From contig NZ_CP030918.1 of the NCBI RefSeq assembly GCF_003324675.1, forward strand, positions 570,001 through 602,000: DNA of 32,000 bases, written 5' to 3'. Source of the DNA: Paracoccus suum. GTDB lineage: Bacteria; Pseudomonadota; Alphaproteobacteria; Rhodobacterales; Rhodobacteraceae. Position numbers and translations under genes: made by a program. The notes under the pieces are model-generated. The model saw only the letters and a list, made by a program, of their open reading frames with translations. It was not told where the DNA came from and searched no databases. Positions 1 through 22,916 of the stretch are shown one piece after another (the first letter of the stretch is position 1; each line of letters begins with the position of its first letter).

Positions 1-309
1 CGGGGTCATCGCTGCCAGCCGCTCGGCCGCCCAGCCAGTCAGGTGTATCTGCGGCTGGCCGGCGCGGTTGTTGGTCACCGCCATGTCGCGCCAGGCGATG
101 CCCATGCGCAGCCCGGTGCCCAGCGCCTTGCTGCACGCCTCCTTGGCGGCCCAGCGCTTGGCGAGCGTCGCAGCCTCGTGCGGTCGGCGGGCGGCGCGGG
201 CCAGTTCGGTCGGGGTAAAGACCCGCGTGCGAAAGCGGTCCCCATGGCGGTCCAGCACGCCGGCGATGCGCGCGATATTGGCGAGGTCGGTGCCGATGCC
301 GAGGATCAT
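1..309 (-). CDS. acpS: holo-[acyl-carrier-protein] synthase (4'-phosphopantetheinyl transferase); the 3' end runs off the window
   Basis: Reverse complement from the ATG at 309-307 reads [26 protein letters not shown]...[21 protein letters not shown]... This is collinear with E. coli AcpS (GLGTDIVEI...AKRFAVKEAAAKAFGTG). It is absent from the ORF track because its stop lies outside the window. Its start overlaps the upstream gene's stop (306-308) as ATGA. Confidence 0.9.
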
Positions 310-1112
310 TGCCCATCCCACCAGTTGAGCGGGTTCCAGTCCGACCCCGGCCCGGGCAGGGGCGCAGTGCCGTCGGGCGCGACCGGCCCCGCAGGGCTGC
401 CAAAGGCCCAGTCATAGATCGCGCGGAACATGCCGAGGCTGGCGCCCCAGGTGCCACCCAGATCGAGCGCCGGGAGCCCTTCGTAAAGGCCGCGCGCCTC
501 GTCCCAGGCGGCGCCGGGACTTGATGCGACTGCGGCCCAGATCTCGGCCCGGGTCGGGGCCTTCATCCCGCAGACCTGGGTGGCTTCGGGCGGGACGGCA
601 CGTTCCGGGTTCAGCGCGACATCCAGCTCGCGCACCTCGCTCATCATGGCGCATGCGTCGTGCAGCTCCCACGCGGTGGCAGCGGCGATCACGCCGACGC
701 CGATCACCGGGATCGCCTCACCCGCCACGCTGCCGATGTTGCGCGCCGCCCCGCGCGCCGTACGCCGCGCCAGCCGGTCCGAGGTGTCGGCCACAGCCTC
801 GGCCGCCGGCCGCCGCGCACCGCGATAGGTCACCTGCCGCGCCGCGCGCGCCTTGGCGGCCTCGGCCGCCTCGCTGGCGGCACGGGCCTCGGCCCGTGTG
901 GCGCGTGCTTCCAGCGCGGTGGTCCGCGCGGCATTGCGGGTGGCAAGGCTGCGCACGCCGCTGACCGCCTCGACCGCGCCGGCGACCGCGGCGAACACCA
1001 CCGGCGAGACCGCCATAGCGACATTCAGCGCCAACGACGCCGCCATCAGCAACATCATCAGCACCGACCACAACCCGCCGAGCGTGCGCCAGATCAGGCG
1101 GATCGCCCTCAT
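306..1112 (-). CDS. hypothetical membrane protein (N-terminal TM, Ala/Arg-rich helical segment, second TM, Trp/Gly/Pro-rich C-terminal domain)
   Basis: Internal start [29 protein letters not shown]... of track ORF 306..1445. The ATG at 1112-1110 overlaps the stop of the upstream gene (ATGA), and its own stop overlaps the acpS start. Third-position GC is high. I recognise no family. Confidence 0.6.
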
Positions 1113-1567
1113 CGGGCGTCGGCGGTGATCTCGCCGCTGGATTGGTTGATGGTCAGGCGCAGCGTCGCGGGGTGGGCGTCGCTCTCGCCCGGCGTGACCC
1201 GCTTGATAGGCACGGTCACGACCAGCCCCTTGCCGGCCTGATACTCGGCCCGGCGCGCGGCGAAATCGAGACCGAAGAAGCCCGAGCCCTCGGCCTCGCC
1301 CACCAGCCGGCAACGGCGCAGGCCAAGCTCGTCCAGCGGCGGCGACTGGACCATCAGATAGAATGGCGCGCCGGCTGGCTCGACCGTGTCGATCGCGGTC
1401 AGGCGGATCGCACCGTCGGCATAGGTGGCGGTGTTCGCCTCCCACGGCTCGGCAATCGTGTCGGCGCGAGGGCCGTCACCGCAGGGCGTAACCGACTGGG
1501 CCCCGGCCGGGAGGGCAAGCAGCGCAAGCATCGCGGCCAGCCGAGTGCTGCGCCGGCCGCCCATCAT
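1109..1567 (-). CDS. hypothetical secreted/periplasmic protein with a cleavable signal peptide
   Basis: 152-aa ORF with the N-terminus [25 protein letters not shown] (Sec signal, AXA-type site). Its start overlaps the pdxJ stop (ATGATG/TGA at 1562-1567). I recognise no family. Confidence 0.6.
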
Positions 1568-2307
1568 CCGGCGTTCCCGCGCGCAGCGTCCATGCAGCGG
1601 CGCATTTCGGCGATTGCCGGCCCAAGGCCGCGCAGGATGGCCTCGCCGATCAGGAAATGGCCGATGTTCAACTCCAGCACCTCGGGCATGGCAGCGATCG
1701 GGCCGACGTTCTGATAGGTCAGGCCGTGGCCGGCGTGCACCTCCAGCCCCAGCGCGGCGGCGAGGCTGGCGCCGGCGCGCAACCCTTCCAGTTCGGCCTG
1801 CTGCTCGGCCAACCGGCCCTCGATCCCCAGGTCACACCATGCGCCGGTGTGCAGCTCGACCACCGCGGCGCCGGCCTTGGCCGCGGCCTCGATCTGGCGC
1901 GGATCATGGCCGATGAACAGTGACACCCGGCTGCCGGCCTCGCGCAGGGGGGCGATGAAATCGGCCATCCGCCCGGCATCGCCAGCAACGTCGAGGCCGC
2001 CCTCGGTCGTCCGCTCCTCTCGCTTTTCGGGCACGATGCAGACGGCATGCGGGCGGTGGCGCAGCGCGATGGCCTGCATCTCGGGCGTGGCCGCCATCTC
2101 GAGGTTTAGGGGCGCGCTCAGGGTTTCCATCAGCCGGGCGATGTCGTCGTCGCTGATATGGCGGCGATCCTCGCGCAGATGGGCAGTAATGCCATCAGCG
2201 CCGGCGACCTCGGCGACGCGCGCGGCCTCCACCGGGTCGGGCCAGGGCGTGCCGCGGGCGTTTCGGACAGTGGCGACATGGTCGATGTTGACGCCGAGGC
2301 GCAGCAT
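1564..2307 (-). CDS. pdxJ: pyridoxine 5'-phosphate synthase
   Basis: [19 protein letters not shown]...[12 protein letters not shown]...NLEMA...[14 protein letters not shown]...ELHTG...HAGHGLTY...[10 protein letters not shown] is collinear with E. coli PdxJ. I chose the ATG at 2307 (GGAG 8-11 nt upstream). An alternative upstream start at 2334 would add 9 aa. Confidence 0.93.
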
Positions 2308-2414
2308 GGCGAGGGCTCCGGTTGGGACGCGCAAAGACTAGCCTGCGCGCCCGCGGGGCGCGAGTCCCCGTAGCGCGCCTTGCCGCCCCCACCGCTGCGA
2401 GCTAAGCCCAGCCC

Positions 2415-3470
2415 ATGCTGCCCACCGAGCGCCTTCACCAGATCACCCGCCGCTTCGAATATCTCGAGGCGCGGCTGAATGCCGGTCCGGCGCCCGACGA
2501 GATCGCAGACGTCAGCCGCGAATACGCCGAGCTGAAACCGGTCGTGCAGCTGATTGCCGACTGGAACGAAGCCGAGGCCGGCATTGCCGAGGCCCAGGCC
2601 ATGCTGGCAGATGCCGAGATGCGCGACCTGGCCGCGGACGAACTGGCCCGCCTGCGCGCCGTCCAGCCAGAACTGGAGCAGGCCCTGCGCCTCGCCCTGC
2701 TGCCGAAAGACGCGGCCGACGCCCGCCCGGCGATCTTGGAAATCCGGCCCGGCACCGGCGGCGAGGAGGCTGCCCTGTTCGCCGCCGACCTGATGCGCAT
2801 GTATCAGCGCCACGCTGAGGCGCAGGGTTGGCGCGTCGAAGTGCTGGAGCTCGCCGCGACCGAACTCGGCGGCGTGCGCGAGGCCGTCATGCGGATCGTT
2901 GGCGAAGGGGTCTTTGCGCGGCTGAAATACGAATCCGGCGTGCACCGCGTCCAGCGCGTGCCGGAAACCGAATCCGGCGGGCGGATCCACACCTCGGCCG
3001 CGACGGTGGCGGTCCTGCCCGAGGCCGAAGCCGTCGAGATCGACATCCCCGCGACCGACATCCGCATCGACACGATGCGCGCCAGCGGGGCCGGCGGCCA
3101 GCACGTCAACACCACCGATTCGGCCGTCCGCATCACCCACCTGCCGACCGGGATCGTGGTCACCTCGTCCGAAAAATCGCAGCACCAGAACCGTGCCAAC
3201 GCCATGGCCGTTTTGCGGGCGCGGCTGTTCGACTTGGAACGATCGCGCGTCGATGCAGCCCGCGCCGCAGACCGCCGCACCCAGGTCGGCAGCGGCGATC
3301 GCAGCGAGCGCATCCGCACCTACAACTTTCCCCAAGGGCGACTGACCGACCACCGCATCAACCTGACGCTTTACGCGCTCGAAAAGGTGATGGCGGGCGA
3401 TCTGTCCGAGGTGATCGACGCGCTGACCGCGCATGACCAGGCTGCGCGCCTCGCCGCGTCCGAGGGCTAG
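2415..3470 (+). CDS. prfA: peptide chain release factor 1
   Basis: The 351-aa product carries the GGQ motif ([25 protein letters not shown]) and the RF1-type PxT tripeptide ([13 protein letters not shown]), not the RF2 SPF. No frameshift site is present. Confidence 0.95.
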
Positions 3471-7713: not shown

Positions 7714-8871
7714 TCACGTCCCTGATGCCGCACCCGCGCCCGTCGCGCCCCACAGGGTTCCGCCATCTGCGGTGGTGCCGGCAGCCTCGATCAGCCCCTC
7801 GGCCCGCAGACGATTAATGTGGGCAACCGCCTCGACCAGGGCGAGGCCGAACTCGCCCTCGCCGATGCGCCGGCGGTAGAGGACGTCAAAGCAGCCGACC
7901 GCAGTGCGTGGCGCCTCGGCCAGCACAGAGACCAGCCGATCGAGCGCCGCGCGGTGGTTTCCGATGAGCGCGGCGAGGCGAAACGGCAGGCCGGTGAATG
8001 GCAGGCCGTGGCCGGGCAGCACCAGCTGGTCGGGCCGGGCAAACCGCGCCAGCCGAGCGCAGCTGTCCATCCAGTCGCCGACCGGGTCGGCCAGCGGCTC
8101 GGTCGGATAGACCCCAAGGTTGGGCGAGATCCGCGGCAGCAGCTGGTCGCCGCCGATCACGATGCCATCATCCGACCACAGGGTCGCGTGTTCGGCAGCA
8201 TGCCCCTCGCCCATACGCACCGCCCAGCGTCGGCTGCCGAGGGTAAGGCACTGGCCTTCCTGCAGACGGCGAAAGCCGGGGCGCAGCGGGGCCGCGACAT
8301 CCGCCGAATGCCACGGCCGCTCGGTAGCGCGGCGGGCCAGCATCTCGGCAGGCATGCCGGCGGCCCGCCAGAACTGCAACTGCTCGGGCGGCGGGTGTCG
8401 GGGCTGGTCCAGCCACAACATGCGTGCGGTCAGCCAGGCCGTCCGGCTCATCAGGACCTCGGCGCCCTCGACCTGTAGCGCGCCAGCGCGGCCGACGTGG
8501 TCGGCATGGGAATGGGTAACCAGTACACGTGCGACCCTGCCCGCCAGTGGCCCTGCCCGCAGCGCCGCCCATTGCGCGCGGCTGGGGGCGTCGTCAAAGC
8601 CGGTGTCAATCACGGTCCAGCCGTCATCATCGGCCAAGGCGTAGATATTGACGTGATCGAGCCGCATCGGCAGTGGCAACCGCATCCACAGGACGCCCGG
8701 CGCGACTGTGATCGCGGCGCCGGGCACCGGCGGCTCGGGGAATGGGTAGGCAAGGCCGGCTGCCCCGCCTGCCCGCCCCTCAGTTTCGGCAAATGGCGCG
8801 GGGATCTGCGCCTCGGCGACATCAGTAGACGCGGGGCCGGCCGTGGTCCCCGCACCAGCCCGTTCCCTCAC
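7714..8871 (-). CDS. MBL-fold metallo-hydrolase
   Basis: The THSHADHVG (HxHxDH) motif is present, along with downstream His/Asp ligands (GHAAEH, LPGHG). The GTG start at 8871 overlaps the stop of the upstream acyl-CoA dehydrogenase (GTGA). The exact start is uncertain. Confidence 0.8.
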   Translation of the reverse strand: MRERAGAGTTAGPASTDVAEAQIPAPFAETEGRAGGAAGLAYPFPEPPVPGAAITVAPGVLWMRLPLPMRLDHVNIYALADDDGWTVIDTGFDDAPSRAQWAALRAGPLAGRVARVLVTHSHADHVGRAGALQVEGAEVLMSRTAWLTARMLWLDQPRHPPPEQLQFWRAAGMPAEMLARRATERPWHSADVAAPLRPGFRRLQEGQCLTLGSRRWAVRMGEGHAAEHATLWSDDGIVIGGDQLLPRISPNLGVYPTEPLADPVGDWMDSCARLARFARPDQLVLPGHGLPFTGLPFRLAALIGNHRAALDRLVSVLAEAPRTAVGCFDVLYRRRIGEGEFGLALVEAVAHINRLRAEGLIEAAGTTADGGTLWGATGAGAASGT

Positions 8872-14464: not shown

Positions 14465-15526
14465 ATGGTGCATTTGTGGGTCAGGGCCGAGAGCCGGGCG
14501 AACGAGGACCGGGTCGGCATCACCCCCGAGGGCGTGGCCGAACTGCTGGGCCGCGGCTTTGCCGTCACGGTCGAGGAGAGCCCGCGCCGCGTGATCCCGA
14601 CCGCCGCCTATGCCCGCGCCGGTGCGACCGTTGCCTCCGAGGGAAGCTGGGTCACCGCCCCCGGTGATGCGATAATCCTCGGCCTCAAGGAATTGCCCGA
14701 GGACGGCACGCCCCTGCCACACCGGCACATCATGTTCGGTCATGCCTACAAGGGCCAGCCGGCGGGTGCGGCCCCGCTGGACCGCTTCCGCGCTGGCGGG
14801 GGGCGGCTTTATGACCTCGAATACCTGACGGGCGAGGATGGGCGGCGGCTGGCGGCATTCGGCTATTGGGCCGGTTTTGCAGGCGCAGCCGTGTCGCTGA
14901 AATGCCGCTCGGCGCAGGCCCGCGGCGGCATCTGCGGGCCCGTCGGGGTCTATGCCAGCAAGGATGCCCTGATCGCCGAGGTGCGGGCAGAGCTGGACGC
15001 GATCCTCGCCCCGCGCCCGCACGCGCTGGTGATCGGCGCGCGCGGCCGGGTGGGCAGCGGCGCGGCGGATTTCTGCACCGCCGTCGGTGTACCCGTGACC
15101 CGCTGGGACATGGCCGAGACCGCGCATGGCGGCCCCTTCCCCGAGGTTCTGCAGCACGAGGTGTTCCTGAACTGCATCCTCGCCCAGCCCGGCGCGCCCG
15201 TGTTTGTCCCGGCCGAGGCGAAAAATCCCGGCCGGCAGTTGACGGTGATCGGCGATATCGCGTGTGATCCGACCAGCGATTTTTCCCCGATCAAGGTCTA
15301 TGATCGCACCACGACCTGGGCGCATCCGGCCCTGCGCGTGGCGGAGAATCCACCACTGGACGTGATGGCGATCGACAACCTTCCGTCGATGCTGCCGGCC
15401 GAAAGCAGCGCCGATTTCGCGGCGCAACTGCTGCCCGTGCTGGCGCGGCTGGACCAGATCGAGGACGGCGCCTGGGGCCGCGCGAGCGCCCTGTTCGACG
15501 AACATGCAAAGGGTGGCCGGTCATGA
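14465..15526 (+). CDS. saccharopine dehydrogenase, NAD+/L-lysine-forming type (LYS1-like; lysine-ketoglutarate reductase direction in catabolism)
   Basis: MVHLWVRAESRANEDRVGITPEGVAELLGRGFAVTVEES... and HIMFGHAYKGQ resemble yeast Lys1 and AlaDH/PNT-fold saccharopine dehydrogenases. A GAGGGGGG ribosome-binding site lies upstream. Confidence 0.8.
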   Translation: MVHLWVRAESRANEDRVGITPEGVAELLGRGFAVTVEESPRRVIPTAAYARAGATVASEGSWVTAPGDAIILGLKELPEDGTPLPHRHIMFGHAYKGQPAGAAPLDRFRAGGGRLYDLEYLTGEDGRRLAAFGYWAGFAGAAVSLKCRSAQARGGICGPVGVYASKDALIAEVRAELDAILAPRPHALVIGARGRVGSGAADFCTAVGVPVTRWDMAETAHGGPFPEVLQHEVFLNCILAQPGAPVFVPAEAKNPGRQLTVIGDIACDPTSDFSPIKVYDRTTTWAHPALRVAENPPLDVMAIDNLPSMLPAESSADFAAQLLPVLARLDQIEDGAWGRASALFDEHAKGGRS

Positions 15527-22178: not shown

Positions 22179-22916
22179 ATGAAAGCCGTGCTCACCATGA
22201 CCATGATCGCTGCCGCCGGCTTGCCGGCCGCCACCGCCGCCGGCGAGGCCGTGACCTATTCCGCCGAAGGGCGCGAATTCGAGGGTTATTTGGCCAAGGC
22301 CGACAATCCCAAGGGTGCCGTCGTGCTCATCCACGACTGGGACGGGTTGAACGAATACGAGAAGTCGCGCGCCGACCAGTTGGCCGCACTGGGCTACAGC
22401 ACCTTTGCCGTCGACATCTATGGCAAGGGCGTTCGCCCGACCACGATGGAAGGCAACAAGGCCGAGACCGCGAAGCTGTATGGCGACCGGCCAATGATGG
22501 TGAAGCTGCTTGAGGCCAGCGTGGCCGAGGCGCAGAAGCAGGGGCTGAAGTCGGCCGTCGTGATCGGCTACTGCTTTGGCGGCGCGGCGGCGCTGGAGCT
22601 TGCAGCCGCCCAGCCCGAGGGCGTGGTGGGCTACGGCACCTTCCATGCCGGTCTGGGGCAGCTAAAGGACACCGACTTTGCCGCCGCCAAGGCACCGGTG
22701 CGGCTATGGCATGGCGGCGCTGACGCCTCGGCCCCGCTGACCGCTCTGGCGGTGGTGGGCGATAAGCTGAATGCGGCGGGAACGCCGTGGCGCGCCACGA
22801 TCTATGGCGGCGCGCGCCACACCTTCACCGTCCCCGGCACCAAGGATTACGTCGAGGCTGATGACAAGGACAGCTGGGCGCAGTTCCAGGCCTTCCTTGC
22901 CGAGGTCTTCAAATGA
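22179..22916 (+). CDS. dienelactone hydrolase family protein (secreted)
   Basis: It has a signal peptide ([22 protein letters not shown]). [11 protein letters not shown]...AVDIYGKG...VIGYCFGG (nucleophile elbow with Cys) and a C-terminal HTF are typical of the DLH family. Confidence 0.8.

Follow-up and report, generated by a model that had tools for sequence, protein, structure and literature searches.

Two accessory envelope genes, probably acquired independently, in the variable pdxJ–acpS junction of Paracoccus suum

The stretch analysed here, referred to below as the window, is 32,000 nucleotides of Paracoccus suum DNA (contig NZ_CP030918.1, positions 570,001 to 602,000). At its beginning four consecutive genes, pdxJ, ORF152, ORF268 and acpS, run on the minus strand, and at each of the three junctions the stop codon of one gene and the start codon of the next share an ATGA overlap (Table 1). 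The outer genes were assigned by profile searches. PdxJ, pyridoxine 5'-phosphate synthase, matched Pfam PF03740 over its full length (E = 3e-96; 321.5 bits against a cut-off of 24.5) and NCBIfam NF003624 (6e-122; 405.7 bits against 331), and the 103 in-window residues of AcpS, holo-ACP synthase, matched PF01648 (ACPS; 6e-20; 71.8 bits against 25) and TIGR00516 (3e-25; 88.8 bits against 59.8). Our reading of the minus strand confirmed the gene chain and the three ATGA overlaps described in the original prediction for this locus. Its further claim, that the pdxJ–acpS junction holds two uncharacterised envelope-type proteins of no assignable family, was borne out by searches of Pfam, NCBIfam, PHROGs, PADLOC and PDB profiles; the sensitive profile and Foldseek searches proposed with it returned no significant match for either protein.

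ORF152 and ORF268 are real, conserved coding genes. Their in-frame GC content at third codon positions (GC3) is 0.868 and 0.877, respectively, compared with 0.862 for pdxJ and 0.903 for acpS in a genome of 69% GC, and it is high in every 30-codon window of both ORFs. Each has a conserved homologue family, of 42 clusters for ORF152 and, by word search, 45 for ORF268, and the relatives are intact genes at ~35–55% identity with invariant residues and in-frame indels. Since the ORF268 homologues begin at the same MRxxRL, ATG 1112 is favoured as its start over a longer ORF that begins at GTG 1445. The chain was thus checked for misplaced start codons, where the homologue N-termini left it unbroken, and for frame disruption in relatives, where the ORFs were intact. 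Two antisense ORFs on the plus strand, at 68–328 opposite acpS and at 853–1128 opposite ORF268, also have a GC3 of 0.88–0.90, because they mirror the third codon positions of the real minus-strand genes.

In Rhodobacterales generally, the pdxJ–acpS junction behaves as a variable slot that tolerates extra genes. We surveyed the 80 genome loci (L001–L080) whose PdxJ is most similar to the P. suum protein; nearly all are from Rhodobacterales. Both genes were present in 73 loci, the other seven having no acpS within 6 kb, and across the 73 the gap between them ranged from 0 to 3990 nucleotides. They were directly adjacent (gap of 82 nucleotides or less) in 17 loci and separated by one or more genes in 56. 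The slot was occupied by a LysE-type translocator in seven loci, a Dabb protein in seven, a cytidine-deaminase-like protein in four, DUF1003 in two and an orphan multi-transmembrane protein of ~145 residues in seven; an alpha/beta-hydrolase membrane protein, a chaplin-like protein and several further orphan membrane proteins were also found there. Downstream of acpS, the related loci continue with lepB, rnc and era. In E. coli, pdxJ and acpS lie in the same order and on the same strand within a housekeeping cluster with rnc and era (PMC8708148), and this operon description was the only literature on the junction that we found. The Rhodobacterales cluster shares its gene order, strand, rnc and era with that of E. 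coli, but it is arranged as pdxJ–slot–acpS–lepB–rnc–era and is interrupted in those 56 of 73 loci.

ORF152 and ORF268 occur in this slot independently of one another, and all four combinations of presence and absence are found within Paracoccus. Both genes are present in P. suum, in L003 and in a Paracoccus metagenome-assembled genome, an ORF152-type gene only in P. amoyensis (L002), an ORF268-type gene only in Paracoccus sp. MBLB3053 (L097), and neither in P. beibuensis (L008), where the gap is 38 nucleotides. The ORF152 family was present in 17 of the 80 surveyed loci, representing at least 12 genera, and in 15 of these 17 without an ORF268-type gene. ORF268-type genes likewise stand alone between pdxJ and acpS in L081/82, L101, L113 and L114. 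In P. suum and L003 ORF152 precedes ORF268, whereas in L102 (777–2054) the order is reversed to pdxJ, ORF268-type, ORF152-type. A hidden Markov model search revealed no ORF152 relative adjoining ORF268 homologues outside the slot. As each gene is found alone, and the two are found in either order, they do not fit an obligate pair or two-gene module, and the expectation that the pair would always occupy the pdxJ–acpS junction across Rhodobacterales did not hold in the survey.

ORF268 belongs to a large unannotated family, here called F268. Using a profile of the conserved core, residues 90–216 (alignment A3), an exhaustive search of representative clusters at 50% identity returned 1258, 879 and 166 clusters at E of 1e-3, 1e-10 and 1e-30, respectively. 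The family lies mostly outside the junction, with only 7 of 39 metagenomic loci at pdxJ/acpS. F268 is a mobile-element cargo family, its homologues recurring in integrase-bearing elements next to tRNA genes. A tyrosine integrase is encoded directly upstream of the F268 gene in at least nine distinct loci (L084, L091–93, L105, L106, L107, L109, L120–122 and L128); it is of the DUF6538 plus Phage_integrase type or of the Arm-DNA-binding type, with at most one or two small ORFs in between. Directly downstream of F268 in these elements lies a gene for a ~500-residue protein matching phrog_4756 (E = 1e-42) or DUF5906, and the element is bordered by a tRNA gene (Gln, Met, Leu or Pro) in L091, L105, L106, L118, L122, L125 and L128. 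The elements are 3–5 kb long, the unit in L106 measuring ~3.2 kb from integrase to tRNA-Gln. The ORF268 copy in the window has no integrase nearby and is solitary in its operon. In a neighbour-joining tree the integrase-linked F268 clade falls between two slot-resident groups, a position implying that F268 genes passed between the slot and mobile elements at least twice.

Defence-type genes are further neighbours of F268. They include ThsB_TIR, SIR2-STALD and PIN7 in L090 (700–6828) and a NACHT/STAND NTPase in L131 (3114–6495), where the F268 gene is a longer variant of 350 residues; F268 also lies beside a DEAD/DUF559 helicase (L140) and beside NYN/VWA/WYL genes (L086/L088). Plasmid records (queries ORF268, P0081 and P0109) yielded only one F268 copy, truncated to 140 residues, which lies directly after an IS66 insertion on the Sulfitobacter faviae plasmid NZ_CP139730 (18102–18524; L096). 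A relaxase gene lies near this copy, as does a gene pair for an AAA-ATPase and an S8 peptidase. Small tRNA-targeting islets and satellites that carry a tyrosine integrase together with a primase or replication protein are known as P4-like, PICI-like and tycheposon-like elements. The F268 loci resemble these in combining an integrase, small ORFs, F268, DUF5906/phrog_4756 and a tRNA within 3–5 kb, but no capsid or packaging genes were seen in them, and the F268 elements are known from sequence and lie outside the window.

In three of the elements the F268 cistron is bracketed by twin direct repeats of 26–32 nucleotides (L091, 2024–2051/3251–3278; L106, 5071–5099/5868–5896; L084, 4946–4971/5686–5711), and in L091 the bracketed cistron also includes a PqiA-like partner. 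The repeats fold as GC hairpins of 10–14 bp, with G-U pairs in the stems and tetraloops at the tips (-19 to -26 kcal/mol). Only the loop distinguishes the upstream from the downstream copy, and the latter is followed by a T-run; the hairpins may act as terminators, stabilisers or cassette boundaries. Recombinase core sites (11-6-11) were considered and rejected in favour of RNA hairpins, given the G-U stems, the tetraloop-only differences and the T-runs. An attC or integron cassette was rejected for L084, L091–93 and L106, as there are no GTTRRRY cores and the integrase is co-oriented. The PqiA-like partner in L091 was also compared with the ~145-residue slot membrane family and did not match it.

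ORF152 encodes a predicted exported, beta-rich protein of an orphan family restricted to Rhodobacterales. Its predicted Sec signal peptide comprises a positive n-region, a hydrophobic core and an A-x-A motif, and the position of the A-x-A followed by Q is conserved among homologues (alignment A1). A lipobox is absent, the first cysteine, C29, being six residues past the A-x-A site, after VTP. A Tat motif is absent as well; RRSTRL does not fit S/T-R-R-x-F-L-K, and homologues do not conserve the RR. C29, C86 and E40-P41-W42 are invariant across the 26 homologues in A1. The AlphaFold2 (AF2) model made with the family alignment is all-beta with nine strands (predicted local distance difference test, pLDDT, 87; predicted template modelling score, pTM, 0.79), and its pLDDT is low at the signal-peptide cleavage region. 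Pfam, NCBIfam and PHROGs contained no match to ORF152, PADLOC had none below E 0.38, and a PDB profile search gave none at E up to 10. Foldseek searches with the AF2 model reached E 0.27 at best in the PDB and 0.12 in BFVD, with template modelling scores of 0.41 or less. A known fold, such as a periplasmic lysozyme-inhibitor barrel or an NTF2-like fold, was set aside, there being no significant profile or structural match.

The genomic address of the ORF152 family is fixed. The gene is the last before acpS in 15 of its 17 survey loci, often with a 4-nucleotide overlap at acpS, the most distant members that could be placed (from Pseudophaeobacter arcticus and a metagenomic lineage; L099 is among them) also lie in a pdxJ-X-acpS-lepB-rnc-era arrangement, and no member was seen outside the pdxJ–acpS slot. 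P. suum ORF152 is 56% identical to its L003 counterpart, against 79–82% for PdxJ and AcpS; synonymous sites are saturated at 50–56% protein identity. Tandem duplicates of the family occur just upstream of acpS in L041 (9613–10693) and L021 (6761–7599).

ORF268 is a predicted inner-membrane protein, helical in its AF2 model. An N-terminal tail with three Arg leads into a hydrophobic stretch, where 19-residue Kyte-Doolittle windows score at least 1.6 for centres 19–47 and helices 2–35 and 37–51 are modelled at a pLDDT of ~79–92 (10-residue block means). Residues 54–133, with 17 Lys and Arg versus 8 Asp and Glu (net +9), are modelled as helices 56–91 and 103–130 around a hairpin at 93–102, and this segment varies in length by tens of residues among homologues. 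E132, P135, G138 and C154 are invariant in alignment A2; P135, G138, C154 and C181 are invariant in the 128 F268 members of alignment A4, where E132 is nearly so. Residues 158–268 contain 6 Lys and Arg versus 14 Asp and Glu (net -8), with C181, P186, W192 and P199 invariant, and C181 is the likely disulfide partner of C154. By the positive-inside rule, these features suggest that the N-terminus is inside and that the membrane hairpin leads into a cytoplasmic coiled coil, from which a third span crosses to a C-terminal domain in the periplasm. The earlier description of ORF268 as a two-transmembrane protein is approximate; hydropathy and charge suggest the hairpin (residues 11–53) plus a third helix (residues 134–157). 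ORF268 had no match in Pfam or NCBIfam, and nothing below E 0.06 in PHROGs or PADLOC, where no anti-phage defence model matched ORF268 itself below E 0.38. Pfam searches across 30 and 128 F268 members gave only coiled-coil noise, the best PDB profile match of ORF268 had an E of 0.17, and Foldseek of its AF2 model against the PDB gave no match.

Translational coupling at overlapping stop and start codons (ATGA or TGATG) is known from trpE-trpD and trpB-trpA of E. coli. The P. suum chain resembles these cases in its three consecutive ATGA overlaps, which L003 keeps, and in ORF268, which has no Shine-Dalgarno (SD)-like motif 5–13 nucleotides before its ATG, so that its translation by re-initiation after ORF152 seems plausible. 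Unlike the trp pairs, the chain is known from its sequence alone, and such overlaps are frequent in the window: a crude gene map places five further ATGA or GTGA overlaps among ~21 other same-strand junctions. In all 73 related loci acpS opens with ATGA or GTGA, as the first two residues of AcpS are Met-Ile (ATG ATY), and in 47 of the 73 the upstream ORF stops in the TGA of that start, whatever the upstream gene is. The overlap between ORF268 and acpS is therefore a property of acpS and not of ORF268, and this pattern suggests that acpS as a rule depends on coupling to the gene before it. As a whole, the chain exceeds chance expectation only weakly. The ATGA overlaps make translational coupling possible, and a fixed stoichiometry is not implied by them.

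An SD-like GGGATGGG precedes the acpS ATG within the last codons of ORF268. Several slot-resident ORF268 homologues keep the C-terminal tail NPLNWW/F-D-G-Q/K (309–340 in the window), and the tail codons TGG GAT GGG CAA TGA of ORF268 also hold this SD-like sequence and the acpS ATG. Dual coding may constrain the ORF268 tail.

Several explanations for the presence of the two genes were weighed. That ORF152 and ORF268 are untranslated annotation artefacts of a GC-rich genome is vanishingly improbable. High-GC DNA does yield many long spurious ORFs, and a GC3-based gene caller can choose antisense ORFs with mirrored GC3, but the frame-specific GC3 of 0.87–0.88 equals that of the flanking genes, invariant residues and in-frame indels are seen in dozens to hundreds of homologues, the genes are intact in relatives at ~35–55% identity, and the AF2 fold of ORF152 is confident; the artefact reading is already effectively refuted. 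According to the original prediction, the two proteins may form a dedicated periplasmic/membrane complex, deliberately slaved to the cofactor genes, with its synthesis tied by the overlap chain at a fixed ratio to PdxJ and AcpS. Adjacent and overlapping genes in P. suum, L003 and the Paracoccus metagenome-assembled genome would agree with this proposal, as would the presence of both in reversed order in L102, the conserved Cys pairs of both envelope proteins and the missing SD motif of ORF268. We nevertheless consider such a complex improbable, since for each gene there are several lineages that lack the other, P. beibuensis lacks both, no ORF152 relative lies beside any ORF268 homologue outside the slot, F268 is found mostly elsewhere, many unrelated genes occupy the slot, and overlaps of this kind are commonplace, the one at acpS being intrinsic. 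Room is left for a facultative interaction in the lineages that have both genes.

ORF152 might also have a housekeeping role tied to its fixed neighbours, for example an envelope or lipid function with AcpS or the signal peptidase LepB. This would account for a family found only immediately upstream of acpS, which in every known context sits between pdxJ and acpS-lepB-rnc-era, is last before acpS in nearly all of its survey loci and often overlaps it by 4 nucleotides, and is spread over at least 12 genera. Such a role has little probability in our view, however, as the presence of ORF152 in only 17 of 80 loci and its absence from some Paracoccus indicate a dispensable gene, its sequence diverges much faster than those of its neighbours in the comparison with L003, and its fixed position can be explained by vertical inheritance together with the need to keep acpS coupled. 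Most likely, ORF152 is a periplasmic protein confined to the slot, passed on vertically and lost often. For the locus as a whole, it is probable that two unrelated accessory envelope genes were independently acquired in the variable slot of the pdxJ-acpS-lepB-rnc-era cluster, with ORF268 coming from a mobile-element family. Several points weigh against this explanation. At least three lineages have ORF152 together with ORF268, and both gene orders are found; the survey was confined to the 80 closest PdxJ relatives and did not span all Rhodobacterales; and AF2 models ORF268 only weakly (pTM 0.32). F268 was not found in phage records (queries ORF268 and P0081) or in IMG/VR viral contigs (A3 profile), so the elements are not demonstrably phage-derived. 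The direction of transfer, from element to slot or from slot to element, can be proposed only from a simple neighbour-joining tree, and neither ORF268 nor ORF152 has homology in PHROGs or PADLOC to any characterised exclusion or defence protein.

If the two genes are independently acquired accessory genes, the four cistrons would be transcribed together from upstream of pdxJ, with ORF152 and ORF268 translated by re-initiation at the ATGA overlaps. ORF152 would be exported by the Sec pathway, cleaved after Ala23 and folded into a small all-beta periplasmic domain with a C29–C86 disulfide. ORF268 would be inserted N-in into the inner membrane through its hydrophobic hairpin, followed by the cytoplasmic Arg-rich coiled coil, the third span and a periplasmic C-terminal domain held by a C154–C181 disulfide, and its capture in an always-expressed operon would make its expression constitutive. 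The overlaps would then reflect ordinary operon compaction and the dependence of acpS on upstream coupling, not a special design.

Since F268 recurs beside integrases and in defence-type islands, and in view of its membrane topology, ORF268 could be mobile-element cargo with a role in envelope-level protection, such as the exclusion of incoming phage or element DNA; we offer this as a tentative suggestion that is doubtful at present. Inner-membrane proteins with exclusion functions are encoded by prophages and integrative elements, among them P22 SieA, HK97 gp15, T4 Imm and F TraS. These are small inner-membrane cargo proteins encoded next to the integrase or att end of the element, a context that many F268 homologues share, but F268 lacks sequence or profile similarity to them (PHROGs and PADLOC), is in no phage record and has no integrase in the window. 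More unlikely still is a fuller scheme, in which F268 would be the signature payload of undescribed tRNA-targeting mini integrative elements of 3–5 kb and an inner-membrane exclusion or defence factor, domesticated at least twice into the essential pdxJ–acpS operon by Paracoccus and several other Rhodobacterales, where it would always be expressed and in some lineages may work with ORF152. If F268 were such a factor, a widespread marine-bacterial system would be added to those known, and a housekeeping operon would serve as a constitutive expression platform.

For the most part the locus is unremarkable, with accessory genes occupying a variable slot and overlaps of a commonplace kind. For annotation, it illustrates that a tidy overlap chain in an essential operon is by itself no sign of a functional module, and that the pdxJ–acpS junction serves as a cargo slot, with a gene content that changes even inside a single genus. 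It also brings to light ORF152, a confidently folded periplasmic domain that has no match in PDB or BFVD and whose genomic address is strictly fixed, and F268, a large family of membrane proteins that lacks annotation and is tied to tiny integrase-bearing elements and defence-type islands.

Table 1. Features at the pdxJ–acpS locus of P. suum and further stop/start overlaps, in window positions.
Feature	Position	Strand	Remarks
acpS (holo-ACP synthase)	1..309	-	ATG 309; first 103 codons, then window edge at base 1
ORF268/acpS overlap	306..309	-	gcaATGAtcc
ORF268 (DRW48_02770)	306..1112	-	268 aa; ATG 1112, stop 308-306; annotated hypothetical
ORF268 residues 158-268	309..641	-	acidic C-terminal domain, putatively periplasmic
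ORF268 residues 134-157	642..713	-	conserved hydrophobic helix, family hallmark; hydropathy peak 135-138
ORF268 residues 54-133	714..953	-	Ala/Arg-rich helical segment, putatively cytoplasmic; VTYRG hairpin and R117/R124 motif conserved
ORF268 residues 11-53	954..1082	-	hydrophobic stretch, probably a hairpin of two membrane spans
ORF152/ORF268 overlap	1109..1112	-	ccgATGAggg; also kept in L003
ORF152 (DRW48_02775)	1109..1567	-	152 aa; ATG 1567, stop 1111-1109; annotated hypothetical
ORF152 predicted Sec signal peptide	1499..1567	-	residues 1-23, cleavage before QS; read from sequence
pdxJ/ORF152 overlap	1564..1567	-	cggATGAtgg
pdxJ (pyridoxine 5'-phosphate synthase)	1564..2307	-	247 aa; ATG 2307, stop TGA 1566-1564
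pdxJ-prfA divergent intergenic region	2308..2414	.	presumed promoter site for the chain
prfA	2415..3470	+
Further ATGA/GTGA overlaps	8868-8871, 15523-15526, 22913-22916, 30747-30750, 30995-30998		presumed co-directional genes; crude gene calls

At the head of the chain, a promoter and terminator scan of positions 1–2600 found neither a sigma-70 consensus nor a terminator, and Rfam and tRNA scans of the window gave nothing relevant. A GGAG lies 10–13 nucleotides 5' of the pdxJ ATG. The P. suum genes pdxJ and prfA are divergent, and pdxJ is not behind spoT and DUF2062, whereas in several other Rhodobacterales (L081, L098 and L099 were compared) it follows rpoZ-spoT-DUF2062 on the same strand; in L097 a GHMP kinase gene lies upstream of pdxJ. 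These differing upstream neighbours suggest that the operon head was rearranged in the P. suum lineage.

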